Shown here one piece after another: positions 7,877 to 52,726 of a stretch of 64,000 nt of DNA (position 1 is its first letter; each line of letters begins with the position of its first letter). The position numbers and the translations under genes were made by a program. The notes beneath the pieces are model-generated. The model was not told the origin of the DNA. It saw nothing but the letters and a program-made list of their open reading frames with translations, and ran no database searches. Where the stretch lies: assembly GCA_031274285.1 (NCBI GenBank), contig JAISQJ010000151.1, forward strand, positions 3,843-67,842. The letters are read 5' to 3'. This DNA is from Treponema sp. GTDB lineage: Bacteria; Spirochaetota; Spirochaetia; Treponematales; Breznakiellaceae.

Positions 7877-7893
7877 AGGAGGCCCCGGCCGGC

Positions 7894-8751
7894 TCAGGCA
7901 TCGGCTTCATTCAGTTCCCGGTTGATGGCATCGTAGATCTGCCGGGCATGGTCTAAGAGGGGCCCCGGCTTGTCCTTGGAGGATTTTCCCATGCCAAAGA
8001 TCTTGGCAATGGTTCTGCGGGCCTCCTCCAGGGAAGGCTGCCGCTGTTCCGGTTCGGTGGGGCCGAATTTGTAACGCAGGTAGGCGCAGAGGTAAAGCAC
8101 CCCCTCGTACGCGTAGTTTTTATCCGTGTCCGGGCCGAAACTCTTCATCGCCGAGAGGGTCTCCCTGCCGGCCTGCTCCAGCCGGATTGCCTCGTTGTAC
8201 AAAAACTGGGCCTTCCGCCTGAAAAGGGTGGCAAGCCAATCGTAATGCTGGCGGGGATTCTTTTTATCAAGGTCGTCAAAAAGCCAGGCCGCCCGCAAGG
8301 CGGCCAGCCCCTGCTTGATGGTGGGGCTGGAATTTTTATCAAAGTACTGGTAGCAGCGCATGACCAGGTACTGGGAAACCGCCCCCTCCGCCAGGCCCCG
8401 GGGGGAAGAAAAATCCACTCCCGCGGACAGGCGTTTCGCATCCTTAACCCGGTTCTCCCGGTCGTCTTTGGCCTTAAGGAGGCCCTCGCCTGCAAGCTCC
8501 GCAAAATCCTGGTCCATGACCGCGAACCAACATTCGGGACAGACCGTGGCCTGGTAAATCAGGGGAAAAATTTCACCGTATTTGGCGCTGGGCTCGTAGA
8601 TCCGGTGGAGCTCTTCGGTCATGGGGCCGGCGATAAGCCTGCCCCCGCCGGAAAGGAGTTCTTCCTTCCGAAATTTAGCCCCGCAGACCGGGCATTCGTA
8701 CTCTCTCCGGGATAAAAACGATACCTTTAGTTCCTTTTCGTCTCCGTCCAT
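7894..8751 (-). CDS. DUF2225-like protein (N-terminal zinc-ribbon CxxC...CxxC, helical C-terminal part)
   Basis: YECPVCGAKFRKEELLSGGGRLIAG ... ATVCPECWFA. The family assignment is from memory of the DUF2225 pattern. Confidence 0.6.
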   Translation of the reverse strand: MDGDEKELKVSFLSRREYECPVCGAKFRKEELLSGGGRLIAGPMTEELHRIYEPSAKYGEIFPLIYQATVCPECWFAVMDQDFAELAGEGLLKAKDDRENRVKDAKRLSAGVDFSSPRGLAEGAVSQYLVMRCYQYFDKNSSPTIKQGLAALRAAWLFDDLDKKNPRQHYDWLATLFRRKAQFLYNEAIRLEQAGRETLSAMKSFGPDTDKNYAYEGVLYLCAYLRYKFGPTEPEQRQPSLEEARRTIAKIFGMGKSSKDKPGPLLDHARQIYDAINRELNEADA

Positions 8752-9129: not shown

Positions 9130-10103
9130 GGCGCCTCTTCAAGGGTTACCCCAATCTCTTCGGGCTCCATGCGGATCAGGCTGAGGGAGGGGGGCAGGGC
9201 GGCCTTTACCGGCAGGGTATAGCGGCCCGCCCCGGTAAGGCCCGAACAATCCACGGTAAGAAAATCCGGCGGCGGGGAAAAGGAGTCCAGGTCCCCCCGG
9301 TTCCCCTCCAGTCGGACGATTCCGGTCCTTATATCACCCTCCCCCAGCAGCCCCGGCCCCAGGGAGGTAAGCACGATGGGGATGTTCCCAAAATTCCGCA
9401 CGTCAACCCGGGAATAGATAAAGCCCTTAAACTCGGTGGTCCCGTTCCCCCGGATGGTGAGCAGGGGGTCCCGGTTCAAAATGGCCACGGTAACCGAAAA
9501 ATCGGCGTTCCTGCCGTTAAGGTCGATGACATCGGTGTAAAGTTCCGGCACCTCGGCCAAAAGGCCGCTGGGGCCTTCCAGCACCACCTGGGTAGGGGAA
9601 AGTGTATGGGACACCAAATCGAAACCCGGTTCGGGACTGCCCTCGATATTCGCGGTCAGGGGGACGTATTTGTTCACCTTGTAGTCAAGATCGATAACCA
9701 TGGTCACGGGGTCCACGGTTATTTCCAGGGGCTCCACCCCCAGGGCGGTCCCCTTCTTGCGGATTCTCACCGGGGCATGGTAGGTCCCCGGCGATTCGTA
9801 GCTCCCAAGATCGATGTAGGCTTCAAAATCGTCATCCTGGATAGGTTGAATATTGTTCGCATCCCCCCGCAGGGTTACCCGCACCATCCGGGCATAGGGA
9901 CTGGCGGGGCACAGGTGGGAGGAAAGATCCAGGATAAGGGGGATGGAGAAAAACCGGGTTTCCAGGGTGGAATTCCGGTGAACGATGAAGATCACCAGGG
10001 CCAGGGCGATGGAGAGCACCTTGGGGACCCAGTTTTCCGCCGCGCCCCGGAGAAAGCCCTTAAGGTTTAGCGAAAACATCACCCTTCTCCTTGGGGGACA
10101 CAT
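9126..10103 (-). CDS. cdaR: YbbR-domain protein (CdaR-type regulator of diadenylate cyclase)
   Basis: N-terminal TM helix followed by repeated beta-rich YbbR-like segments. It lies immediately downstream of and overlapping cdaA, the canonical gene order. An internal start (MFSLNLKG, 10079) is possible. Confidence 0.75.
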   Translation of the reverse strand: MCPPRRRVMFSLNLKGFLRGAAENWVPKVLSIALALVIFIVHRNSTLETRFFSIPLILDLSSHLCPASPYARMVRVTLRGDANNIQPIQDDDFEAYIDLGSYESPGTYHAPVRIRKKGTALGVEPLEITVDPVTMVIDLDYKVNKYVPLTANIEGSPEPGFDLVSHTLSPTQVVLEGPSGLLAEVPELYTDVIDLNGRNADFSVTVAILNRDPLLTIRGNGTTEFKGFIYSRVDVRNFGNIPIVLTSLGPGLLGEGDIRTGIVRLEGNRGDLDSFSPPPDFLTVDCSGLTGAGRYTLPVKAALPPSLSLIRMEPEEIGVTLEEAP

Positions 10104-17417: not shown

Positions 17418-18451
17418 CCCCGGCCCTCCTCCAATTCCTCCCGCATCCTAAGAAAACTTTCGTAACGGTCTTCGTGGATGATCCCCGCCGCGGCCGCTTC
17501 CAGAATCTTACAGCCCGGCTCAGTACGGTGGGTGCAGGACAGACCGTAGCTGCATTTCCCCGCCAGGGGGGCAAATTCCCTCATCCGGAGCACCAGTTCC
17601 TCCGCCCCCAGGCCCTGGGGCACAAAGCGCCGTATGCCGGGGGTGTCAATGAGCAGAGTCTCCGCGGTTCCCGGAATCTCGATGATCTCCGCCAGGGTGG
17701 TGGTGTGGTTTCCCCGGTCGTATTTTTCGTTCAGGGCTCCCACCCGGGCCTGGGCTTCGGGCCGCAGAGCATTCACCAGGCTGGACTTCCCCACCCCGGA
17801 CTGGCCCACCAGCACCGCGCAGCGGCCCCGGATAAGGTCCCGCAGGGCGGACAGGCCCTCCCCGGTTTTGGCGGAAACCCGCAGCACCGGGTACCCGATG
17901 CGCTTAAAGTCTTCCAGCCGTTCCTCCATGTCAAGCCAATCCCCCTCCGGGTCCGCAGAAGAGTCCAGGAGGTCCTGCTTATTACAGATGATCGCCGCGG
18001 CGATCCCCGAGGCATCGGCCTGGACCAGGACCCGGTCCAGAAAACGGGGCCTAAAAGGGGGGGAGGCGGGAGTGGTAAGGACCAGGATCAGGTCCACGTT
18101 GGCGGCCAGAATCTGGGCCTCGGCGGCTCGGCCGGCCCCCAGGGCCTTCTGGTTTTTCCGGGTAAAGAGGTTACGCCGTTCCAGGACTCCGGTAATCAGG
18201 CCCGCGCCGGGGGCGCCGGAGTCTCCCCCGGGAGATCGTAAGATTCCGCCCGGAGGATCCCGCTCCAATTCCACCGTCACCCGGTCTCCCGGAGCCAGGG
18301 GGTTGCTGTAGGCCTCCATCCCTTTAAGGACCTTCCCCTTGATCCTGCAGGCAAGGCAGCGCCTCCCCTCCCCCTCGTCGTCAAGGCGGACGGTAAAGAT
18401 GTTGCGGGAACCCCGGATCACCAGCCCCTTCCGGCTCACAGGCGTCTTCAT
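17414..18451 (-). CDS. rsgA: Ribosome small-subunit-dependent GTPase A
   Basis: GQSGVGKSSLVNAL, DTPG, C-terminal zinc knuckle CSYGLSCTHRTEPGC. 4-nt overlaps with both neighbours. Confidence 0.92.
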   Translation of the reverse strand: MKTPVSRKGLVIRGSRNIFTVRLDDEGEGRRCLACRIKGKVLKGMEAYSNPLAPGDRVTVELERDPPGGILRSPGGDSGAPGAGLITGVLERRNLFTRKNQKALGAGRAAEAQILAANVDLILVLTTPASPPFRPRFLDRVLVQADASGIAAAIICNKQDLLDSSADPEGDWLDMEERLEDFKRIGYPVLRVSAKTGEGLSALRDLIRGRCAVLVGQSGVGKSSLVNALRPEAQARVGALNEKYDRGNHTTTLAEIIEIPGTAETLLIDTPGIRRFVPQGLGAEELVLRMREFAPLAGKCSYGLSCTHRTEPGCKILEAAAAGIIHEDRYESFLRMREELEEGRG

Positions 18452-19245
18452 AAAATTCCTAGCTCAAATCCAAGTTCGGCCGCCAGACCCGGCCAGGGGG
18501 CCCCTTGCCCGGAGGGTCCTTCAAGTTCCCGGACATAGAAACGGCGGAAGCGCGGAAGCGCGGATCGCAGGCCCCCTTCGTCCAAAAGGTTTTCCACACG
18601 CCGGGTAATCCCCTCTACCGAATCGTAGACGGTGATATCCGGCGCCGCTTCTTTTTTGAATTCTTCGCGGAGAAAAAGAAAATGGGTGCAGCCCAGCACC
18701 ACCCCGTCTACCCCGGCGGTCCGGAATCGTGCCAGGTAGGGAATCACAGCCTGCCGCCGCTCCTCCTCCCCCGCCAGGGCATAGCGGTACTCCACAAAAT
18801 CCACCAGGGCCGGGGCCGCAAGGGGAACAACCGTACAGCCTCCGTGGCGGGAGGCCAATTCGGCGATATAGGGATCGTCGATGGTCCGTTCGGTCCCCAG
18901 CACCCCGATCCGGCCCGTCTTGGTCCCCAGGGCCGCGGGTTTAACCGCGGGAACGGTACCCACAAAGATCAGGGAGGGAAAGCATTCCCGCAAAAATGAA
19001 AGGGCCGAAACGCTGGCCGTATTGCAGGCCAGCACCACGAGCTTTGGATTTTCCCTGGCGATCAGATCCGCCGTCAGGGTCCTGAGAATCTCCAGCAATT
19101 CCTCCCTGCTCCGTTTCCCGTAGGGAAAGTTCCGGCGATCCGCCAGGTATACCAGGGATTCTTGAGGGTTGCGGGAAACAAACCGGCGGCAATAGGGAAT
19201 CCCCCCAATACCGGAATCCAGAAAAACTATGGGACGATCATCCAT
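18448..19245 (-). CDS. murI: Glutamate racemase
   Basis: MDDRPIVFLDSGIGG, VLACNTAS, LGCTHF. I place the start at ATG 19245. The 72 upstream codons of the track ORF are Pro/Arg-rich and overlap the next real gene. Confidence 0.9.
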   Translation of the reverse strand: MDDRPIVFLDSGIGGIPYCRRFVSRNPQESLVYLADRRNFPYGKRSREELLEILRTLTADLIARENPKLVVLACNTASVSALSFLRECFPSLIFVGTVPAVKPAALGTKTGRIGVLGTERTIDDPYIAELASRHGGCTVVPLAAPALVDFVEYRYALAGEEERRQAVIPYLARFRTAGVDGVVLGCTHFLFLREEFKKEAAPDITVYDSVEGITRRVENLLDEGGLRSALPRFRRFYVRELEGPSGQGAPWPGLAAELGFELGIL

Positions 19246-19540
19246 GCGGATCAAAGAGGCCGTCAAAGGCGGCCCTGGCGGCCTGGGCCTTTTCTTTTTT
19301 CTGCCCCGGTCCGGGAGAACGGAATTTTGGGTCCAGGGAAAACCAATCGCAGAAATTCGCGCGTTCCCGGTCGGCGGGCGGATCGGAGGCCGCCTGGGGT
19401 TCCCGGCAGTGTCCGGAAGAACCGGGGCTGTAGAAACGGCAATTTTTACAGCAGCGAACATCCCTGCCGCAGCTTTCGCATCTTAGGGACCGGCCTATGG
19501 GTTCGGCTGCGCTCGTGGGGACTCCGCAGTACCAGCACAT
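19238..19540 (-). CDS. Small Cys-rich (zinc-ribbon-like) protein, unknown function
   Basis: MCWYCG...LRCESCG...CCKNCRFY...GHCREP...ERANFCDWF. It overlaps the murI start by 8 nt and is the first gene of the operon. Confidence 0.65.
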   Translation of the reverse strand: MCWYCGVPTSAAEPIGRSLRCESCGRDVRCCKNCRFYSPGSSGHCREPQAASDPPADRERANFCDWFSLDPKFRSPGPGQKKEKAQAARAAFDGLFDPHG

Positions 19541-19660
19541 GTACCGATTCTAACCCGGAATCCCCGCCAATGCTAGTACGGCGGGATCAGGGCAACAGTA
19601 TGAGCGCTCTTACGGTATTTCCCTCCCTATTTTGGCAGCAATTAACTGGATTCAAGGAAT

Positions 19661-19797
19661 AAAGACGCCCAGGCCATACAGGGAGGGGCGGCAGGGAGGC
19701 CCCCAAGACGGCCACTTGACCGAAGCGGCGTAGCCGCTTGGGGCCGACTTGGGGATGTCCCTGCCGCCCTCCGGTGAATGTTCTCGGGCTTCTTTTC
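19661..19797 (-). repeat. Copy A (inverted orientation, core only) of the structured repeat family also found at 35392-35706 and 40068-40386
   Basis: Minus-strand core: GGAGGGCGGCAGGGACATCCCCAAGTCGGCCCCAAGCGGCTACGCCGCTTCGGTCAAGTGGCCGTCTTGGGGGCCTCCCTGCCGCCCCTCC (19772-19681). It shares the conserved TTCGGTCAAGTGGCCG bulge and the stem architecture of the other two copies. Confidence 0.8.
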
Positions 19798-19852
19798 TCT
19801 TTGGAATGCTTAAAAGTTAAATTGCTACGGCGGGATTTACCAATGAGCCTTT

Positions 19853-20458
19853 TTGGCATATAACGGAATCATGTTCACCATGATCCCCTGCGCCGCGGGC
19901 TGCGGCCGGCTTGCGGTCAGCGGTTCCAATACCTGCGCCATGCATGCGGCGGATTCAGGCCGGGAGGCGGAGCGGATAGGGAACCATATCACCGCCCTGG
20001 AGGTGATCAAGGACCTCTCCGCCTGCGGGCTCAGCTTTGAAGGCATGGATTTTTCCCGGCGCAAATTCTACGGCTGCAATTTTTCCGGGGCATCCTTTTC
20101 CCGCTGCCTTTTTACCGGGGTCCAGATGCGGATTCTGTTTTTTGATTTCTGTAAGTTTAAGGACTGCGACTTTTCCAATTCAGACCTGGAATTTCTGTCC
20201 TTCGCGGGGTCCGGCATCAGCGGCTGCACCTTTAAGGGCTCCAACCTCATCCACATCAACTACGGAGGAACGGCGATCACGGAAACCACCTTTAACGATT
20301 CGGACCTTTACAACAGCCGTTTTATCAATGCGGATATTACCCGGACCGGTTTCGAGGACTGCAATCTCAAGCGCGTCTACTTTGTCAATGCCCGGCGGGA
20401 GGAAGTATCCTTTAAGGCTTCCAATGCGGCGGAAGCGATCTTTGAGACCGGGGAATAG
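19853..20458 (+). CDS. Pentapeptide-repeat protein with N-terminal Cys/His cluster
   Basis: Runs of A(D/N)LxF-type pentapeptides (CNFSGASFSRCLFTGVQM..., DFSNSDLEFLSFAGSGISGCTFKGSNL...). N-terminus: CAAGCG...CAMH. The start could instead be at MFTM (19871). Confidence 0.8.
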   Translation: MAYNGIMFTMIPCAAGCGRLAVSGSNTCAMHAADSGREAERIGNHITALEVIKDLSACGLSFEGMDFSRRKFYGCNFSGASFSRCLFTGVQMRILFFDFCKFKDCDFSNSDLEFLSFAGSGISGCTFKGSNLIHINYGGTAITETTFNDSDLYNSRFINADITRTGFEDCNLKRVYFVNARREEVSFKASNAAEAIFETGE

Positions 20459-24287: not shown

Positions 24288-24586
24288 TGGCGGCGGGGGA
24301 ATGGCTTAGCATCGACGGGGACAGCCTCCGCATCGAGATAAAGGCCCAGGCCGGGGCCTCAAAGACGGAAATCGCCGGGGTCAGGGACGGACGCCTCAGG
24401 GTCCGGATCGCCAAGGCCCCCCAGGACGGCCTGGCCAATGCGGAACTCTGCCGCTTCCTGGCCGCGATCCTGGGCTGCCCCAGGGGAAAGGTAAGGCTCC
24501 TGCGGGGGGAAAAGTCCCGGCTCAAAACCCTTGCGGTCCCCCGCTCCTGTGCCGAAAAAGCCCGGGCCCTGGCGCCCCCCGGCTAA
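24287..24586 (+). CDS. DUF167 (YggU-family) protein
   Basis: LRIEIKAQAGASKTEI...LRVRIAKAPQDGLANAELCRFLA...VRLLRGEKSRLK. Confidence 0.85.
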   Translation: MAAGEWLSIDGDSLRIEIKAQAGASKTEIAGVRDGRLRVRIAKAPQDGLANAELCRFLAAILGCPRGKVRLLRGEKSRLKTLAVPRSCAEKARALAPPG

Positions 24587-25644
24587 TTCCCTGCGGCCTG
24601 CTTAAAGGCGGTCCACACCCGCTCGTGTTCCTCCTGGGCATCCTGGTTTACGGCCCGCAGGGTTTCCATATCGGTGTTAAAACCCTCCGGCAAGGTCAGG
24701 AAGGGCCGGTACTCCGGGGAGATAAAAGGATCGGAGGCGGCAAAGGTGCAGTAGTAGCCCAGATGCTCAAAGCATCGGGCCCCCCGCCGGGCTTCCAGGA
24801 TGTAGTTAAGGAAGGCGTGGGCGGCCGCGGCATTGGGGGCCCTGACGGGGATAAAGGCCCCCATAAGGCCGTAACCGATTCCCTCCTCGGGGAACACCCT
24901 GGCCAGTTCCGCATTGGCCATCAGGGCCCGGGTGGCCTGGTCCGTATACATCACCGCCGCGGCAATTTCCCCGGAGAGCAGGTCCTCGTCCAGGAAGTCA
25001 TCCTTGATAAGGCGGACATTCGGCGCCAGGTCGATCATCAGCCTTCCCGCCTGGGCGATGACGGCGGGGTCCGGCTCATTGTAGCTTTTCCCCATGACCT
25101 TGAGGGCCAGGCCGTTCATCACCCTAAGGTTGGCGGTCAGCCCCAGCCTGCCCCGGAAGATCGGGTCCCAGAGGTCCCTATAGCCGTTTACCGGCCTGGC
25201 GATTACCTTGGGATCGTATACGATGGTCTGCACCCCCGCGCCGTAGGGCACGGTGTACTCGTCCCTGGGATCGTAGAAGGGTCCCCGGTAGATAGGATTG
25301 ATGTTGCCGTAATTGGGAATCTTGCCCTTGTCCAGCTTTTGCAGGAGTCCCTCCTCGATGGCGGTTTCGATGATATAGTCATCGGCGATCACCAGATCGT
25401 AACCGCCCCCCCTTTCGGTCCGCAGCTTGGTCAGCATCGTTTCGTTGGAATCGAAGTTTACATAATTGATTTGCAACCCCGATTCCCTGGCGAAGCCGTC
25501 CAGGATCTCCTGGGGAAACATTTCCTCCCAGGTATAGATCGTAAGCCGCTCCGTATCCCGCACCGCTCTGGCAAAAAGCGATCCGGGAATCAGAACGGCT
25601 CCCAACAGTAAAACCACCGGAAACAGAAATCTCTTTTTCATCAT
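24583..25644 (-). CDS. potD: Spermidine/putrescine ABC transporter substrate-binding protein
   Basis: Signal peptide MMKKRFLFPVVLLLGAVLI. PotD-like sequence throughout, and clearly paralogous to 30260-31327. The start at 25644 overlaps the potC stop (ATGA). Confidence 0.88.
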   Translation of the reverse strand: MMKKRFLFPVVLLLGAVLIPGSLFARAVRDTERLTIYTWEEMFPQEILDGFARESGLQINYVNFDSNETMLTKLRTERGGGYDLVIADDYIIETAIEEGLLQKLDKGKIPNYGNINPIYRGPFYDPRDEYTVPYGAGVQTIVYDPKVIARPVNGYRDLWDPIFRGRLGLTANLRVMNGLALKVMGKSYNEPDPAVIAQAGRLMIDLAPNVRLIKDDFLDEDLLSGEIAAAVMYTDQATRALMANAELARVFPEEGIGYGLMGAFIPVRAPNAAAAHAFLNYILEARRGARCFEHLGYYCTFAASDPFISPEYRPFLTLPEGFNTDMETLRAVNQDAQEEHERVWTAFKQAAGN

Positions 25645-26471
25645 GTTTCTCCTTTGCTTATTTTTGACCGGCCGCCATAGCCGGAAATTACCGCGGAACA
25701 GAGGGAGAGAAGGGCCGTCAGGACAAAGAGGACGGTACACAGGGCGTTGATCTTCGGACTCACCCCCACTTTAAGCTGGGTGTAGATTCTGATGGGCAGG
25801 GTACTGGTATGCGCCCCGGTAACAAAGATACTAATGATCACGTCGTCAAAGCTCATGGCAAAGGAAATGAGTATGCCGGAAACAATGGCGGGCATAACCA
25901 GGGGCAGGGTAATATCGTAAAAGGCCCGCCATTCCCCTGCTCCCAGGTCCCTGGCCGCCTCTAAAAGGCTTTTATCGATCCCCTCCAGCCGGGCCTTAAC
26001 CAAAAGAAAGACGTAGGGAATACACATGGTGGTATGGGCGATAACCAGAGTGAGCATCCCGAAGGGAAGGGAGATAAGGGCAAAAAAGGCCAGGGACACC
26101 ATGCCCATGATGATCTCCGGGGTGATGATGGGGAGGACCGCCAGGAATTCAATGCCCCCGGCGCCGGGGAGTCTGGCCCTGGTCATGCCGGAGGCCGCCA
26201 GGACCCCGATCACCGCGGCAAAAAGGCTGGCACAGACCCCCAGGACCAGGCTGTTAAGAAGGGCGCCGAAAAGGGCCTGGTCCCTCAGGAGTTCCCCGTA
26301 CCAGCGCAGGGAAAAGCCCCCCCAGTTGGTACTAAGCCTGTTCGCATTAAACGAAAACACGATGACTAAGAGGATGGGCACGTACATTACCACCAGGAGT
26401 ACCGCGAGGTAGAGCTTTGACAGTGATATCCGTTTCAAACCAGACCCTCCAGTTCCCCGCTGCCGCCGCAC
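25641..26471 (-). CDS. potC: Polyamine ABC transporter permease
   Basis: Six-TM permease with an EAA-type loop (LEAARDLGAGEWRAFYDITLP). Confidence 0.88.
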   Translation of the reverse strand: MRRQRGTGGSGLKRISLSKLYLAVLLVVMYVPILLVIVFSFNANRLSTNWGGFSLRWYGELLRDQALFGALLNSLVLGVCASLFAAVIGVLAASGMTRARLPGAGGIEFLAVLPIITPEIIMGMVSLAFFALISLPFGMLTLVIAHTTMCIPYVFLLVKARLEGIDKSLLEAARDLGAGEWRAFYDITLPLVMPAIVSGILISFAMSFDDVIISIFVTGAHTSTLPIRIYTQLKVGVSPKINALCTVLFVLTALLSLCSAVISGYGGRSKISKGET

Positions 26472-30259: not shown

Positions 30260-31327
30260 TTACCGTTGGCTCATTGCCACGGTAAAGGCATCCCAGATCC
30301 GGGCGTGGGCGGCTTCGGCTTCTTCCGGAAGGTTAAACATGAATTCATAGTTGCCGAATCTGCTTACCGTCCTGCCGTTCCGCTCCTCCGTAGGCAGCAG
30401 GAGGAAGGGCCGGTACTCCTGTTTTATATAGGGGTCAGATGCCTGGAAGGTACAGAAGTAACCCAGGTACTCAAAACACCGGGCCCCCCGGCGGCGCTCC
30501 ATGATGGCGTTGAGGAACCAGTGGGCCGCTTCCGGGTTGGGGGCGTTAAGGGGGATAAAGGCGGGCATAATCCCAAAGCCGATTCCTTCCCTGGGGTAGA
30601 CCATCTTGAGCCTGGGATTCTGCATCATGGACTTGAAGACCTGGTCGGAGTACATCAGGGCCACGTCAATATCGCCGTTCAGAATCAACTCGTCCAGGTC
30701 CATGTCCTGAATCACCGCCACGTTTGGTACCAGGTCCAAAAGCCTATCCCCCGCGGCATCGATGATCTCCGGATCGGTCTCGTTGTAACCGCTTCCCATG
30801 GTCTTGAGGACCATGCCGTTGATAACCCGGTAATTGGCGGTGATTCCTACCCGGTTTCTAAGGCCGGGGTTCCAAAAATCCGAAAGGCCCCTGATCTCAA
30901 AATTCACCTTATCGGGATTGTAAACTATGGTCTGGATCCCCGCGCCGTAGGGAACGGTATACTCGTCATCGGGGTCATAGAAATGGTGCTGGTAGAAGGG
31001 GTTTACATTCCTTAGATTGGGAAGCAGCTTCTTGTCCAGCTTTTGGGCGAGGCCCTCGTTGATGGCGAATTCCACGATGTAGTCGTCGGCAATTACCAAA
31101 TCGAATCCGCCCCCGTTGTTCATTTCCAGTTCCACCAGCATGTCTTCGTTGAAGTCAAAGGTCTTGAGCACCACCTCTACCCCGGTTTCCCGGGTAAAGT
31201 CATCGAAGATCTCCTGGGGGATCATCTCTTCCCAGGTGTAGATAACCAACTGCTTCTTCTGGGCGTAAAGGGAAGCCAGGGAACACAGGGAAACCAGGAT
31301 CGCCAGGACAAAACGGACTCTTTTCAT
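30260..31327 (-). CDS. Second PotD-like polyamine-binding periplasmic protein
   Basis: Signal peptide MKRVRFVLAILVSLCSLASLYAQ. Collinear similarity to 24583-25644 (IYTWEEM.PQEI.D.F..E.G..., VIADDYI.E.AI.EGL.QKLDK). Confidence 0.85.
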   Translation of the reverse strand: MKRVRFVLAILVSLCSLASLYAQKKQLVIYTWEEMIPQEIFDDFTRETGVEVVLKTFDFNEDMLVELEMNNGGGFDLVIADDYIVEFAINEGLAQKLDKKLLPNLRNVNPFYQHHFYDPDDEYTVPYGAGIQTIVYNPDKVNFEIRGLSDFWNPGLRNRVGITANYRVINGMVLKTMGSGYNETDPEIIDAAGDRLLDLVPNVAVIQDMDLDELILNGDIDVALMYSDQVFKSMMQNPRLKMVYPREGIGFGIMPAFIPLNAPNPEAAHWFLNAIMERRRGARCFEYLGYFCTFQASDPYIKQEYRPFLLLPTEERNGRTVSRFGNYEFMFNLPEEAEAAHARIWDAFTVAMSQR

Positions 31328-33523: not shown

Positions 33524-33746
33524 TTGACTTCATTAAGCCAATTGTCAACGATACGGTAGACTAGTCCTGCCCCCCGGTAGGGCGAACCCACCAGGGGGGT
33601 AGCGTAAGACTTGACGCCGGCGTGTCGAAGTCTACATATAAGGCGGCAAGGCTGGAGCGGAGGGGGGCCGGGCGAAAAGGCGGCGGTTTGCCGGAAAATG
33701 CCTGGTAACAGGCCCCCCTTCTGAATAGTTATTTAATTTAAGGTTG

Positions 33747-33774
33747 CTTTCCCAAAACTGCAGTTTTGGGAAAG
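33747..33774. repeat. 28-bp perfect palindrome, copy 1 (identical 33-nt sequence recurs at 52629-52661)
   Basis: ctttcccaaaactgcagttttgggaaag. The shared stretch extends to ...cctca (33747-33779). Confidence 0.9.
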
Positions 33775-33793
33775 CCTCATTTGTCTAACCTAA

Positions 33794-34575: not shown

Positions 34576-35382
34576 ATGGCTGCGATGCGGAAAGTGTTCA
34601 TCGTCTTACTTATCCTCCTTGCCCTGGGCGGGGCGGGTTTCTTTTTCGGCTGGGCCCAGATGGACCTGGTCCCCGGTTCCTACGGGGTTATGCGTTCCAA
34701 GACCCACGGTATCGATGCCGCCCTGATCCGGGAAGGGGAATTCCGCTGGGTGTGGTACAAGCTGATCCCCTCCAACGTGACGATCCAGGTCTACCGGCCG
34801 GTCCGGGTGGAACGGACCGTGAATCACCGGGGGACCCTGCCCTCCTCCGACGTGTATACCGGCTTTGCCGGGGTAGCGGCGGATTTTTCCTACGAATTCA
34901 GCGCGGTCCTGTCTTTTAGTATCGGAGCGGAATCTCTTATTCCCCTTATCGGGGAGCGGAACATCAGCGGCCAGGAGGAGCTTGAGGCCTACGCCGAGGC
35001 CCTGGGGGAGGAACTGGAGGCCGCGGCCCTGGGGGCCCTGCGGCGGCTGGGGGAAGACGGGGAAGAAGTGAGGGCCATCCTGGAAACCGGGTCCAGCGCT
35101 GCGCTGGAGGGGGAACTCCGCTCGGCCTTCCCCTACGCGGATGACCTGGAGTGCCGGATTCCGGCGATCCGGTTCCCCGACTTTGAACTCTACTCCCGGC
35201 TCCGGGGCCTCTACACCGATTACCTTAACAGCCAGCGGGAGTACCTGGCCAGGGCCCTGGACGGAGGATCGGAGCGGCAGATCGATTCCCGGTTCCGCAT
35301 GGACGAACTTGCCCGCTACGGCGAACTTTTGACCCGGTACCCGGTATTGCTGGAATACCTGAAGCTGGAAGGGTCAAGGTAA
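34576..35382 (+). CDS. Membrane-anchored hypothetical protein (possibly SPFH/band-7-like)
   Basis: N-terminal TM helix VFIVLLILLALGGAGFFFGW, then VPGSYGVMRSKTHG. The helical C-terminal half is Glu/Leu-rich. The domain guess is weak. Confidence 0.55.
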   Translation: MAAMRKVFIVLLILLALGGAGFFFGWAQMDLVPGSYGVMRSKTHGIDAALIREGEFRWVWYKLIPSNVTIQVYRPVRVERTVNHRGTLPSSDVYTGFAGVAADFSYEFSAVLSFSIGAESLIPLIGERNISGQEELEAYAEALGEELEAAALGALRRLGEDGEEVRAILETGSSAALEGELRSAFPYADDLECRIPAIRFPDFELYSRLRGLYTDYLNSQREYLARALDGGSERQIDSRFRMDELARYGELLTRYPVLLEYLKLEGSR

Positions 35383-35391
35383 CCCCGGTGC

Positions 35392-35706
35392 AACGGCAGT
35401 TAAACGTATGGAGGATACACCCGTTCCCTACCTGCCGCGTAAGAAAAAACGGCGCCTGGCACCCCATCCGCCAGCCGGATGGCGGGGACACCCCCAAGCC
35501 GGACCCGCTTGCGGCTGCGCCGCTTCGGTCAAGTGTCCGCCTTGGGGGGCCCCCCGCCATCCCCCTTGCATGTGCGGTGTCAGGCGCCGTTTTCCAGTAC
35601 CAGCGCCGGGGATTTATTTCGGGTGTATCCTCCCTAGCATCACGCAGGCCGTTGCCCTGGACCTTGATCGCGGGGAAGCGGGGAAAAAACAGCTATGCGG
35701 TATTCA
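35392..35706 (+). repeat. Copy B (long form) of the structured repeat family
   Basis: Aligns along most of its length with 40068-40386. Outer helix: GGCGCCTGGCACC (35451-35463) with GGTGTCAGGCGCC (35576-35588), flanked by an A-run and a T-run. The core hairpin at 35481-35557 is shared with copy A. Confidence 0.85.
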
Positions 35707-35830
35707 GCTTGCGATGAGGGAAGAATTGAAGACAGGGCCAGGGGCAAATGCTTTTCCCTTGAAGTAACCCCCCGGTTTTACCGTTTGTTGTACTATGGAA
35801 AACCATCCCGATAGGGTATATAGGAGTACC

Positions 35831-36469
35831 ATGAAATTTCGCCTCGTATTCGGAGTGTTAGCGCTGTGTATGGGTTTAAGCCCCCTGGCCGCCCAGGACG
35901 GGGATTGGAACGACGAGCCCGGCGAGGAAGTGCCGGCGGATGACTGGTCCGGCTTTATGCCGAGCCTCTATTCCCGGGGGGATCAGGCCTTCGGCATTTC
36001 ATTCGGCGTGGTGGTGCCCACCCTGTTCACCGGTTCCGGCGGGGAGATTTTACCCCGGAACATCATCATCGGCGGTACCGGCTCCCTGTCCTACGATTAC
36101 TTTTTGGGGTCCAACTTTTTTGTGGGTGGGGAATTGCAGGGCATGTTCGCCTCCACCCTGGGGGACCACATGCTCTTTATCATCCCCATTACCCTACGGG
36201 CGGGCTACCAGTTTATAGCGGGGCGTTTTGAATTCCCCCTGTCCCTGGGCCTTGGGGTGGCGCCCCAGCAGTTCAGGACCTCCAAGAGCTACGGCTATGC
36301 GGGGTTCTTCGTCAAGCCCAGGGTTTCGGCCTTTTTTCGGTTTAACCCCGACTGGTCCTTTGGGATAAACACGGCCTGGTGGTGGGTTCCCCAGATAACC
36401 AGGAACTCCAGCGATTCGGTCCACGGTCACTTCTTTGAAGCCACCCTGGCGGTCCGGTATCATTTTTAA
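35831..36469 (+). CDS. Outer-membrane beta-barrel protein (OmpA-like barrel / porin-family fold)
   Basis: AGGAG then ATG. Signal peptide MKFRLVFGVLALCMGLSPLAAQ. Alternating hydrophobic pattern and C-terminal ...LAVRYHF. Confidence 0.75.
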   Translation: MKFRLVFGVLALCMGLSPLAAQDGDWNDEPGEEVPADDWSGFMPSLYSRGDQAFGISFGVVVPTLFTGSGGEILPRNIIIGGTGSLSYDYFLGSNFFVGGELQGMFASTLGDHMLFIIPITLRAGYQFIAGRFEFPLSLGLGVAPQQFRTSKSYGYAGFFVKPRVSAFFRFNPDWSFGINTAWWWVPQITRNSSDSVHGHFFEATLAVRYHF

Positions 36470-37742: not shown

Positions 37743-40064
37743 GTGAGTGATCTCTTTACCGGAGCGGCGGAGGGTTCCGGCCCCCTGGCGGACCGGATGC
37801 GGCCCCAAACTCTGGAAGACATTGTGGGGCAGGATCACATCGTGGGGCCGGGGCGGCTCCTGCGGCGGGCCATCCAGGCGGACCGGCTTTCCTCGATCAT
37901 CTTTTACGGCCCCCCGGGCACGGGAAAAACCAGCCTGGCCAGGGTTATCGCCAACACCACCAGGGCGGCCTTTGAGAGCCTGAACGCGGTGCTGGCGGGG
38001 ATTAAGGACATCCGGGAGGCCATAGACCGTTCCGACGAGCGGCGGCGGCTCTACGGCCGCAGGACCATCCTCTTTGTGGACGAGGTCCACCGCTGGAACA
38101 AGGCCCAGCAGGACGCGCTGCTCCCCTGGGTGGAGAACGGCACGGTGATCCTGGTGGGGGCCACCACGGAAAACCCCTTTTTTGAGGTGAACCGGGCCCT
38201 GGTAAGCCGGAGCCGGGTGTTTCAGCTTAAACCCCTCAGCAAAGAGGACCTGCTGGAAACCGCGCACCGCTGTCTGGGGGACCGGGACCGGGGTTACGGC
38301 AAGTGGCGGGTGGTTTTTGAGGAGGGGGCCCTGGAACACCTGGTGGAGGTTGCCGGCGGGGACGCTAGAAGCCTCCTCAATGCCATGGAACTGGCCGTAG
38401 AGACCAGCGCCTGGGTTAGCCCCGCGGGCGCTCCCCCTGCCGGAACTTCCCAGACCGGGATCGAAGCTTCCCCTGGGGTTTCCCAGGCCGGAGCTTCCCC
38501 CGGCAAGGGGCCCGGCCCCCAGTTTCCCGAAGGGGCGGAGATCCGCATCTCCCTGGAAGCGGCGGAGGAGAGCATACAGCGGCGGGCCCTGCTCTACGAC
38601 CGGGACGGGGACTACCACTTTGACACCATCAGCGCCTTTATCAAGAGCGTCAGGGGCAGCGATCCGGACGGGGCCCTCTACTGGCTTGCCAAGATGATCC
38701 GGGCCGGGGAGGACCCGCATTTCATTTTCCGCCGGATGATCATCCTGGCCGGGGAGGACGTGGGCCTGGCGGACCCCAACGCCATCTGTGTGGTCAGCGC
38801 CTGCGCCCAGGCCTTCGACCGTATCGGTTTTCCCGAGGGGAATTTCCCCCTGGTGGAGGCCTGCCTCTACCTGGCCACTGCGCCCAAGTCCAATTCGGCC
38901 CTTAACTTCTTCGACGTGCTGAAGGAGGTCGAGAAGGAGGACGCGGAGGTGCCCAACCATCTGCGGGACGCCAGCCGGGACGGGGAAAGTTTCGGCCACG
39001 GGGAGGGCTACCTCTACCCCCACGCGTACCGGGACCACTGGGCGGCCCAGCAATACCTTCCCTCCAGCCTGGCGGGGAAGCTGTTCTACATGCCCAGTCG
39101 ATCGGGCTACGAGGGTAAAATCCGGGAGGAGGTCTTGCGGAAGCGGGAACTCCAGGCCGCCATTATCCTGGGGGACGAGAAGCCGGGGGACGGGGAGGCC
39201 CTTACCTGGTCCGCCACCGCCAAGGGCCGGGAAGGCTGGTTTAAGCGCCTGGAATCCGGCCGCAGCGGCCTGTTGCTGGCGGACCGGGACCGGATCCTGG
39301 GGGCGCTGAAGATCAGGCGCCATGACCGGATCCTTATCGCCAACGGCGACGACGGGCTTTTGCTGTGGGAAAGCCTGCGCCGGGCCCCGGAGGGGCTCTG
39401 CGTCTGCCTGGTGGAGAGCGGGCGGGCCCGGGATACCCTGCTCCGCTTTTCCGAAGCCCTGGACGAGGTGGAACAGCCCCGGATTGCGGTGCATTCAGGG
39501 GAGCTGGGTCTCCCGGCGGGCCCCGGAGAGGCTGAGCAGTTCGGTACGCCGGTCTTTGACCATATCGCCGCCAGGGAGCCCTGGCGCCGCTTTCCCAGGA
39601 ACGCGGCCCCCGCATGGTTCCGGCTTTTCGCGGACCGGGCCTTCGCGCTCCTGGCCGGCGGGGGCGGCGTGGCCCTGCTGCAGTCGCCCCCGGTTTTGGG
39701 GCAGCGAATCTCCGGCCTTATCGCCGGCCGGGAGTTGGGGGAACGGCTGGGCCGGGCGGAGGAGGCCTTTTTCTCCGGGGATCCGGCGCTTTCCTGGGAC
39801 GCCGCGGCCCTGGAGGAGGCATTTTCCGGGGCCGACTTTGAAACCGAGGTGGAAGTCATTGACCAGAAGGAGGACCGGCTTATCACCGCCGGGGACCTGG
39901 GCCTCTGGTTCGACGCTTCCCGGTCCCGCTGGGGGAGCTTTATCGCCGCGGCCCTGGGGGAAGACGAGGTTAAGGCCGTGGAAAACCTGCTGCGGGAGCG
40001 GATTGGCGAGGGGCCGGTAAGCTGGGCCTGGAAGAGTCTGCTCCTCAAGGCCCGAAAGTTATGA
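37743..40064 (+). CDS. rarA: Replication-associated recombination protein A (RarA/MgsA AAA+ ATPase) with an internal low-complexity insertion and a C-terminal extension of about 300 aa
   Basis: [69 protein letters not shown], then the MgsA C-terminal region ([35 protein letters not shown]). The extension begins around [13 protein letters not shown] start. Confidence 0.88.
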
Positions 40065-40067
40065 TCC

Positions 40068-40386
40068 ACGGCAGCGTTTACGCTTATGGAGGCTGTACCC
40101 GGTTAGACCTACCCGCCGCAGATGAATAAGAAAAACCGGCGCCTGGCACCCCATCCGCAAGCCGGACGGCGGGGACATCCCCAAGCCGGTCACGCTCGCG
40201 GCTGCGCCGCTTCGGTCAAGTGGCCGTCTTGGGGGCCTCCCCGCCGTCCCACCGGCATGTTTGGCGTCAGACGCCGCTTTCCGGCATCAGCGCCGGGGAT
40301 TTATTTCGTGTATATCCCCTATGACTGCAAGGGCTGCTGCCCTGGGCTTTTCATGGGGAAGCGAGGCAATTGGGGCGGTACTGAAA
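40068..40386 (+). repeat. Copy C (long form) of the structured repeat family
   Basis: Collinear with 35392-35706. Core hairpin at 40168-40243. Outer helix: GGCGCCTGGCACC (40138-40150) with GGCGTCAGACGCC (40263-40275). Confidence 0.85.
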
Positions 40387-40483: not shown

Positions 40484-41737
40484 ATGAAAACCCGGACCTT
40501 TCCTGCCCTTCTTTTAGCCGCAATGCTCTGCTCCTGCCCCTCCACGGACAGCGGCGGGCCCATCGATACCTCCGATCCCGGAAGCGTGGCCCCGGATGAG
40601 CCGCTTGACGTGGACAGCGCGCTCTGGTTTTCCGAGCTATACAAGGGGCTCAGTACGAGTGATAATAAAACCCGCAGTAATGTTTGCGATGCAATAAATG
40701 CTGCCTTTAGCCCAAACCTAAGCCTGACGGCGGATAACGGAGCAGCCAATGCGGACTGTGCGTATCTCCTCACCATGATTGACGAGGCCAACAAACAGCG
40801 GGGCTGGGAAACAAGTTATCGATCGAGCGTCTATGCCACTAATGAAATAGTTGACGGGACTACCCTTACCGCTGCGGTTGATTTTATATTCGGCAAGAAA
40901 TTCGCGGCCCTCTCTTCCGCGTACCACGCGGCCGCTTCGACGGACGGCACAAGCTGGCAGCCGGCGGCCATACCCCGGACCGGGACCTGGCAGGCCCTGG
41001 CCTACGGTAACAATACCTATGCGGCCGTCGCTTCCAGCGCCGGGAAAAGGGCGGTCTACTCCAAAGACGGAGTCACCTGGAAATGGGCGAACCTGCCCTT
41101 TGATTCAAGCTGGCAGGCCCTGGCTTTCGGGGGCGGGAAGTTCGCAGCCCTGGCCTCCTACAGCGATAAGGCGGCCTATTCCGATGACGGCCTTACCTGG
41201 ACCGAGACGGCCATGCCCCTGGCCGCAAGCTGGCGGGCCCTGGCCCACGGGAACGGAAGGTTCGCGGCCCTGGCCACCAACGGCAGCGATGCGGCCGCCT
41301 ATTCGGACGACGGCGTGAACTGGGTCCAGGCAACCCTGCCCGCGGCCCAGAACTGGTCCGCTACGGCCTATGGAAGCGGTACCTTTGCCGCCCTGGCCCT
41401 TAACAGCGCTACGGCGGCCTACTCAACCGACGGCGTTACATGGACGGCGGCAACCCTGCCGGCCGCGGCGAAATGGCGGGGCCTTGCCTATGGAGGCACG
41501 ACATTTGCCGCCATCGCCGAGGACGGTACGGCCGCCTATTCATCGGACGGCATAACCTGGACGGCGGCTTCAACGCCGCCAAGCGGCAAGGGCTGGAGCG
41601 GCGTCAGCTACGGGGATAACAAATTTGTCGCCGTGGGCGATAAACAGACCGCCTATTCCGCCGACGGCACAAGCTGGACGACAGTGACAACCATGCCCGC
41701 GACCGCGGCTTGGCAGGCCGTGGTCTACGGGGAGTAG
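40484..41737 (+). CDS. Lipoprotein with seven tandem repeats of about 37 aa (probable 7-bladed beta-propeller)
   Basis: Lipobox LLAAMLCSC. Seven units of the pattern AAYS.DG.TW....LP....W..LAYG.G.FAA.A (DGTSW, DGVTW, DGLTW, DGVNW, DGVTW, DGITW, DGTSW). Confidence 0.75.
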   Translation: MKTRTFPALLLAAMLCSCPSTDSGGPIDTSDPGSVAPDEPLDVDSALWFSELYKGLSTSDNKTRSNVCDAINAAFSPNLSLTADNGAANADCAYLLTMIDEANKQRGWETSYRSSVYATNEIVDGTTLTAAVDFIFGKKFAALSSAYHAAASTDGTSWQPAAIPRTGTWQALAYGNNTYAAVASSAGKRAVYSKDGVTWKWANLPFDSSWQALAFGGGKFAALASYSDKAAYSDDGLTWTETAMPLAASWRALAHGNGRFAALATNGSDAAAYSDDGVNWVQATLPAAQNWSATAYGSGTFAALALNSATAAYSTDGVTWTAATLPAAAKWRGLAYGGTTFAAIAEDGTAAYSSDGITWTAASTPPSGKGWSGVSYGDNKFVAVGDKQTAYSADGTSWTTVTTMPATAAWQAVVYGE

Positions 41738-52513: not shown

Positions 52514-52628
52514 GTTGCTTACCCCTATATTCAAACTAATTCCTACTATTACGATAGGTTTAATTAAGTTTATCAAAGTTGAAAAAAAGGATCAAGGGAG
52601 TTTGGATAAAATATGAGGTAAGACGAGC

Positions 52629-52656
52629 CTTTCCCAAAACTGCAGTTTTGGGAAAG
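52629..52656. repeat. 28-bp perfect palindrome, copy 2 (identical to 33747-33774)
   Basis: ctttcccaaaactgcagttttgggaaag followed by cctca, as in copy 1. It lies between kdgK and the URO-D-family gene. Confidence 0.9.
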
Positions 52657-52726
52657 CCTCAGATGTAAGAAATAATAAGTGATAGTGGGTTTCTTAGTTT
52701 TTAGTTCTTGACCGCCGTTTTCCGGC

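Follow-up and report, generated by a model that had tools for sequence, protein, structure and literature searches.

Palindromic intergenic repeats of a termite-gut Treponema lineage, probably MITE-like mobile elements with a conserved hairpin tip

Three related palindromic sequences (copies A, B and C) occur in a 64,000-nt stretch of Treponema DNA, which was analysed as a whole and is called the window below; coordinates are those of the window unless another contig is named. We consider it probable, at about 0.7, that they are small, non-coding and non-autonomous mobile repeats of a termite-gut Treponema lineage, i.e. MITE-like palindromic intergenic elements, and they are best explained as a known kind of element and not as a new RNA gene. 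A unit of about 230-345 nt, the interior of which is one long imperfect palindrome, is inserted into intergenic DNA beside short hairpins of the form GGCGGGGAT/ATCCCCGCC, with 9 bp of the target being duplicated. The same sites are empty in relatives, and the pairing is held by compensatory changes. The apical bulged hairpin of 35-40 nt is the most conserved part, and it is carried also on unrelated stems in other termite-gut metagenomes. Movement would take place in trans, by a transposase encoded elsewhere, for which the 9-bp duplication suggests an enzyme of the DDE type. In transcripts, the GC-rich hairpin between an A-run and a U-run would act as a terminator or protect RNA ends on either strand, and in that case intergenic insertions would be tolerable; the invariant apical hairpin would be a putative recognition site for a protein, be it a host factor or part of the element's own machinery.

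What was noticed as a covarying structured repeat can in this way be accounted for without a new RNA class. Such repeats break the short-read assemblies of termite-gut MAGs, and they can be mistaken for RNA genes or for small ORFs.

Members of the family and their extent

Besides the three copies in the window, the family has a fourth member in L014, a contig from a termite-gut Spirochaetaceae MAG. From the shared core we built an 86-position covariance model (R1), with which the window was scanned with all filters off. Exactly three copies were returned: C at 40164-40249 on the plus strand (102.9 bits, E 5e-19), B at 35477-35562 on the plus strand (101.5 bits, E 1e-18) and A at 19686-19769 on the minus strand (95.9 bits, E 1.4e-17), this last core being common to B, C and L014. 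The runner-up in the window scored only 16.6 bits, while the L014 element scored 74 bits. The initial annotation, which was made from the sequence alone, had claimed the same architecture at two further places in the window, and these three hits (E 1e-17 to 1e-19) bear it out; its quoted minus-strand reading of copy A also matches the sequence, at 19772-19682. A copy beyond the three, namely L014, came from an exact-pattern genome scan.

The most conserved module of the family is the apical bulged hairpin, which in copy A reads AAGCGGC-TAC-GCCGC-TTCGGTCAAGTGGCCG (19709-19739, minus strand) and in copy C lies at 40193-40226. The 29-mer GCGGCTNCGCCGCTTCGGTCAAGTGNCCG at the hairpin tip is identical in all four copies. 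The 16-mer TTCGGTCAAGTGGCCG has two exact matches, at 19709-19724 (minus strand) and 40211-40226, and a third occurrence, at 35524-35539, differs by one mismatch (GTGTCCG). It was also found, as had been pointed out before, that 2 nt present in B and C are missing from copy A immediately 5' of the apical stem, and copy A therefore does not keep the reading frame that B and C have in common.

The extent of the element is larger than the 19661-19797 first assigned to copy A, as in each copy the core grows into a hairpin of about 150 nt and this in turn into an imperfect palindrome of about 230 nt. The long hairpin of copy A (about 19652-19803, minus strand; -92 kcal/mol, z = -7.8) encloses 19661-19797 and lies within a palindrome at about 19614-19841. 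In copy B the long hairpin is at 35446-35597 and the palindrome at 35407-35636 (plus strand), the latter with an outer 14-bp inverted repeat GGAGGATACACCCG/CGGGTGTATCCTCC; in copy C, they are at 40133-40284 and 40082-40325. The hairpins of about 150 nt are bordered by A-rich sequence on the 5' side and by U-rich sequence on the 3' side. When B and C are aligned, about 300 nt are shared, with 87% identity over 191 nt, and the common unit extends over 35392-35690 in B and 40068-40372 in C (both plus strand), these ends being approximate. The outer arms of A could not be aligned with those of B and C, yet each set pairs with itself. L014 and copy A share the left outer arm (z = 7) besides the core, and therefore the family has at least two subfamilies, A/L014 and B/C.

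The proteins of the window are about 70% identical to their best orthologues and about 51% identical to those of T. primitia, and these matches assign the window to an uncultured Treponema of the termite gut. Pfam scans of about 56 ORFs in the window returned the usual chromosomal genes of a spirochete; none encoded a transposase, RAYT or integrase. Copy B stands after a band-7-like gene and copy C after rarA. The RarA/MgsA protein encoded there (37743-40064) has about 300 aa of extra C-terminal region (773 aa in total; the proteins of relatives are similarly long, at 744-754 aa), and the ORF downstream of copy C (40484-41737) contains tandemly repeated units of about 120 nt (40 aa) that carry a YS.DG..W motif, its counterpart in a relative showing a faint DUF6242_C match. 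Elsewhere in the window, ORF 54958-55383 matches the BrnT ribonuclease toxin of type II toxin-antitoxin systems (E 1.6e-20), and two paralogous genes for solute-binding proteins (24583-25740 and 30260-31327) are 5.7 kb apart with 74-78% nucleotide identity over parts of their length. A second short and perfect palindrome, CTTTCCCAAAACTGCAGTTTTGGGAAAG, is present at 33746-33778 and 52625-52657, and with a mismatch at its centre at 1151-1184 of L014; it appears to be a further shared family, of repeats, terminators or operators.

Searches outside the window gave few relatives. An exact-pattern scan of 185,579 species genomes (one per species) returned 23 matches, among which L014 was the only true relative. 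The core is missing from 82 orthologous loci (L024, L026 and 80 further JGI loci, the latter amounting to 514 kb), the exact 21-base core had no match in the JGI metagenomes, and phage and plasmid collections gave none either; 12 matches in viral contigs were judged to be chance. No sequencing run carrying the window itself was found, nor was an RNA run for L014. ARAGORN found no tRNA, and a tRNA-derived element was rejected. Hairpin telomere junctions, CRISPR repeats and a small peptide were rejected as well. An integron attC site, which should stand in a cassette array beside intI with each cassette ending in RYYYAAC...GTTRRRY boxes, was likewise discarded: there is no integrase and no GTTRRRY box at the hairpin base, and the copies are separated by 4.7 and 15.8 kb and lie between housekeeping genes that are syntenic.

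Insertion sites and their empty counterparts

The L014 element has a convergent gene on each side, one wecA/mraY-like and the other arsR-like. In L121, the flanks of which are about 94% identical, and in L122 and L120 this site is empty, with the two genes only 15-25 nt apart. L014 has an extra 345 nt that begin with CAGCAATTCCAA and end with TTGGAATTGCTG, carry 12-bp terminal inverted repeats (12 of 13 positions matching) and are flanked by the 9-bp direct repeat AATCCCCGC, a target duplication. The junctions are genuine and not an assembly artefact, since contigs of X1, the termite-gut metagenome that holds L014, cross the contig at an even single-copy depth of 13-20.

The whole inserted element at copy A was delimited by its collinearity with the 345-nt L014 element and by the breakpoints of relatives. 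It comprises 240 nt (19588-19827, minus strand), starting with TAGCAATTTAAC (at 19827 it begins TAGCAATT) and ending with GTTGCCCTG. The 9-bp target-site duplication ATCCCGCCG is found at 19828-19836 on the left and at 19579-19587 on the right (both minus strand); the left copy agrees in register and target motif with AATCCCCGC of L014, and the right one lies within a small target hairpin, GATCCCGCC-GTACTAGCATT-GGCGGGGATTC (19588-19558). The perfect direct repeat is in fact 11 nt long, ATCCCGCCGTA, that is ATCCCGCCG(TA), at 19836-19826 and 19587-19577. Direct repeats of 11 nt that are 150-450 nt apart are not rare, with about 35 cases in the window, and what gives weight to this one is mainly where it lies and that it resembles the L014 target. 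In both L014 and copy A the insertion target is a short GGCGGGGAT/ATCCCCGCC hairpin (19558-19588 in the window; 1290-1308 in L121). Sequences within one mismatch of AAATCCCCGCC number 14 in the window against 5.6 expected. Other CAGCAATT ends in the retrieved loci were only chance matches within genes.

When compared with contigs of relatives from the metagenomes X1, X4 and X5, the similarity to the window ends at 19577/19578, and in one X4 contig it resumes at 19828. One X4 contig bridges 19562 to 19884 with 82 nt between them, compared to 321 in the window. The 249 nt missing in relatives at this site are equal to the element plus one copy of the duplication. The left end of copy A, TAGCAATTTAAC, pairs with an internal GTTAATTGCTG, and the outer end on the right is degenerate; the inverted repeat expected there would have been lost by a deletion between two CTGAT microhomologies.

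As the initial annotation had stated, copy A is situated between divergent genes, and not behind a gene. On one side is the Cys-rich ORF that heads the murI/rsgA gene string (19238-19540, minus strand), which starts 39 nt beyond the right target duplication, and on the other is the pentapeptide-repeat gene (19853-20458, plus strand), which starts 17 nt beyond the left one. Nearly the whole divergent promoter region is occupied by the element, from which it would follow that both neighbours are transcribed from its inside or its edge; an element that fills this region may influence how murI and the genes near it are expressed. The longest murI ORF (18448-19540) overlaps the Cys-rich ORF by about 220 nt, and the true murI start is probably near 19245 (MDDRPIVFLDSGIGG), immediately after the Cys-rich ORF.

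For copy B, the interval from 35369 to 35934 measures 564 nt in the window and 284 nt in relatives. Neither L024 nor L026 has the element at the B and C sites. In L026, the site orthologous to copy B (9403-9860) is a 456-nt spacer with different terminator-like hairpins, and this contig also has a 37-nt hairpin repeat family of its own (1004-1040 and 7892-7970 among L026 coordinates). No target duplication was found for B or C; at B there is only a weak GTAACCCC repeat, and the flanks of the C site are too diverged to compare.

Taken as candidates for a MITE family, the units of 240-345 nt are within the usual limit (under about 500 bp) and have no coding capacity. Copies are dispersed in unrelated contexts, with three in 64 kb, the one of L014 and a high depth in X1. 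Terminal inverted repeats are clear in L014 and degenerate at the right end of A, and B has a candidate in its 14-bp inverted repeat. Target-site duplications are present at L014 and A, and empty orthologous sites at L014, A and B. Several observations weaken this reading: the window has no gene for a transposase, RAYT or integrase, and a parent IS whose ends match the element was not found; copy A is without its outer right inverted repeat; and conservation peaks at the centre and is lowest at the ends, whereas classical MITEs conserve their termini.

Pairing, the apical module and the rival explanations

In the core, 95.5% of the cells are paired and 6 of the 34 pairs are altered on both sides, values that were matched by only 3-6 of 500 shuffles. 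Between B and C, 4 double changes that keep the pairing are spread along the whole stem, compared to about 0.5 expected (P ~0.0009). The double change reported earlier between GGCAGGGA/TCCCTGCC and GGCGGGGA/TCCCCGCC is real, the pair being GC in B and C and AU in A, and at this pair L014 has GU. The folds are also more stable than those of shuffled sequences, with z = -7.8 (A), -8.5 (B) and -5.8 (C). Base pairing is maintained beyond chance. Compensatory change of this significance implies selection on the fold or correction of one arm by the other; DDE transposition itself needs neither. The fold belongs to the MITE-like element, and it may matter as RNA, as DNA, or to the element alone.

The initial annotation went further and considered the element to be conserved for its fold, as RNA or single-stranded DNA, and not for coding. 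Two parts of this claim stand. It is non-coding: no open reading frame is common to all copies, and a profile built on the B/C frame, which was meant to catch spurious ORFs over other copies, found nothing among 5.8 billion proteins. The pairing is kept, as the double changes between B and C indicate. What is not supported is the step to a dedicated structured RNA. Both strands fold equally well, except that the antisense strand folds slightly better in all four copies, and therefore the fold does not point to an RNA from one strand. The comparison with Rfam that had been advised was fruitless, as Rfam 15 had no match in the window at the gathering thresholds and copy B, searched at E up to 10, gave microRNA-hairpin noise only.

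A different kind of evidence came from the metagenomes. The depth of X1 climbs through the element toward the apical module, where it is about 1,100-1,400 against 13-18 on the flanks (about 80-fold, in 56 contig pieces), which shows that there are many copies in X1, depth being copy number mixed with organism abundance. Between the window copies and these metagenomes the apical 35-40 nt alone are in common. In X2-X5 the apical module is on other stems, which are mutually complementary and unrelated to those of the window; for example, a single 530-nt X4 contig has it on GGACGGAACATCTG...CAGATAACCCCTCC. The left-arm module CCAAAAGACGCCTAAAAAAGATACCGGGGGTCCTGACGG (1856-1894 of L014) is also repeated, with a depth of 560-717 in X1, and in X5 it is covered more deeply (117-124) than the apical core (26). 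Since the left-arm module is itself high-copy, the family is built of short modules in mosaic fashion. In X1, one contig of low depth (273 nt, 86% identical) joins outer arms of the L014 type without the inner 94 nt (1766-1859 of L014), and it represents either an outer hairpin in 'empty' form or a derivative that arose by deletion.

Conservation from the centre outward, together with an apical module on unrelated stems, is unusual, and with the compensatory changes it leaves room for an RNA role or for a self-mobile apical module. The apical hairpin CGCTTGCGGC-TGC-GCCGC-TTCGGTC-AAGTG may, as a tentative suggestion, be a functional unit of its own, i.e. a module homing to hairpin tips, or a protein-binding DNA or RNA motif that needs to be displayed on a long helix of any sequence. 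An independent unit of this kind would explain both the presence of at least three unrelated stem types in termite-gut treponemes and the compensatory pairing of the stems. Carried to its full consequence, the apical hairpin would be the true unit, homing into the tips of pre-existing hairpins or palindromes, and the stems would be older host or repeat hairpins and not co-evolved arms. The excess depth of the module over the stems in X1, its unrelated complementary stems in X2-X5, the X1 contig without the inner 94 nt and the failure of the outer arms of A to align with those of B and C all speak for this version. We nevertheless regard it as unlikely: its 'empty' form is one low-depth contig at 86% identity that may be a deletion derivative, short-read contigs may be chimeric across repeats, neither a duplication nor defined ends were seen for the module, and the divergence between B and C concerns the unit as a whole, with compensatory changes over the full length of the stem. 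That the family is a multi-copy structured non-coding RNA gene (an sRNA or a cis-acting RNA), with selection on the RNA fold and the long hairpin with its conserved bulged tip as the functional RNA, is a little harder still to maintain. Such a gene would agree with the significant compensatory changes, with an apical module that is invariant though the stems differ, and with the orientation of all four copies, which is that of the downstream gene. It does not agree with strands that fold equally (antisense better in four of four), with the lack of an Rfam match, with the failure to find a sigma-70-like promoter, or with an element that is missing at the orthologous sites of relatives and is bounded by target duplications.

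Two further explanations have much poorer odds. The small, bulged and GC-rich hairpin is of REP size, high-copy and outside genes, and its pairing evolves in concert as reported for REPINs (PMC3116915), so that movement as single-stranded DNA by a RAYT, an HUH Y1 transposase recognising the bulged hairpin, was considered and judged very improbable. There is a single module at the tip, where a REPIN would have two inverted REPs with a less conserved spacer between them, conservation is highest in the tip and lowest in the arms, the module has no 5' GTAG motif, and the window has no Y1 transposase gene. The 9-bp target duplications at L014 and A also count against it, as HUH Y1 enzymes are not known to make target duplications. 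Ordinary intrinsic terminators, alike through segmental duplication or convergence and not mobile, would account for B, C and L014 each standing after a gene on the same strand, for the position of the L014 copy between convergent genes, and for the A and U runs around the hairpin. This we find hardly credible at all, because copy A is between divergent gene starts, the genes next to the different copies are unrelated, two copies show target duplications and empty sites, and stems of about 60-85 pairs are far beyond what a terminator needs. A terminator role as a property of the MITE-like element is a separate matter, and it is weakened in its own right. Although the hairpin has A and U runs beside it on both strands, the U-run that follows it is short on the sense strand (U3-U4, against U4-U6 on the antisense), and a consensus terminator scan did not call the long hairpins.

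Comparison with known systems

Families of stem-loop sequences have been defined by systematic genome scans (PMC2267715). The element described here is much longer than most of those stem-loops, and a spirochete family is not mentioned in that survey; the reviews covered by our literature search likewise describe no MITE- or REP-like family of spirochetes.

The family resembles the REP/REPIN-RAYT systems and the BIME mosaics (PMC3116915, PMC3337134, PMC3479197) in being made of high-copy, extragenic and GC-rich imperfect palindromes, with long hairpins the arms of which change in concert, and in its mosaic of short modules. It differs from them in having target duplications, no GTAG, and one asymmetric module at the tip where those have two inverted REPs round a variable spacer, and no RAYT was seen in the window.

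The closer parallel is with bacterial MITEs that fold over their full length, such as Correia/NEMIS of Neisseria, ERIC/IRU of enterobacteria, and RUP and SPRITE of S. pneumoniae (PMC3184786, PMC2229807, PMC10969869; for the pneumococcal elements PMC3049150). No sequence relation to them was seen, and none is expected for a host of a different phylum. Correia and ERIC duplicate TA, whereas the duplication here is 9 bp. This family also departs from all of them in that its conservation peaks in the central bulged apical hairpin and not at the termini, and in its target, a short GGCGGGGAT/ATCCCCGCC hairpin. On the other hand, it shares with them a length of 100-350 nt, a non-coding and intergenic nature, dispersed copies, terminal inverted repeats with target duplication, presence or absence between relatives, division into subfamilies and possible nesting. 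These known elements also form stable hairpins in transcripts, and that of SPRITE is terminator-like, as may be the case for the elements described here.
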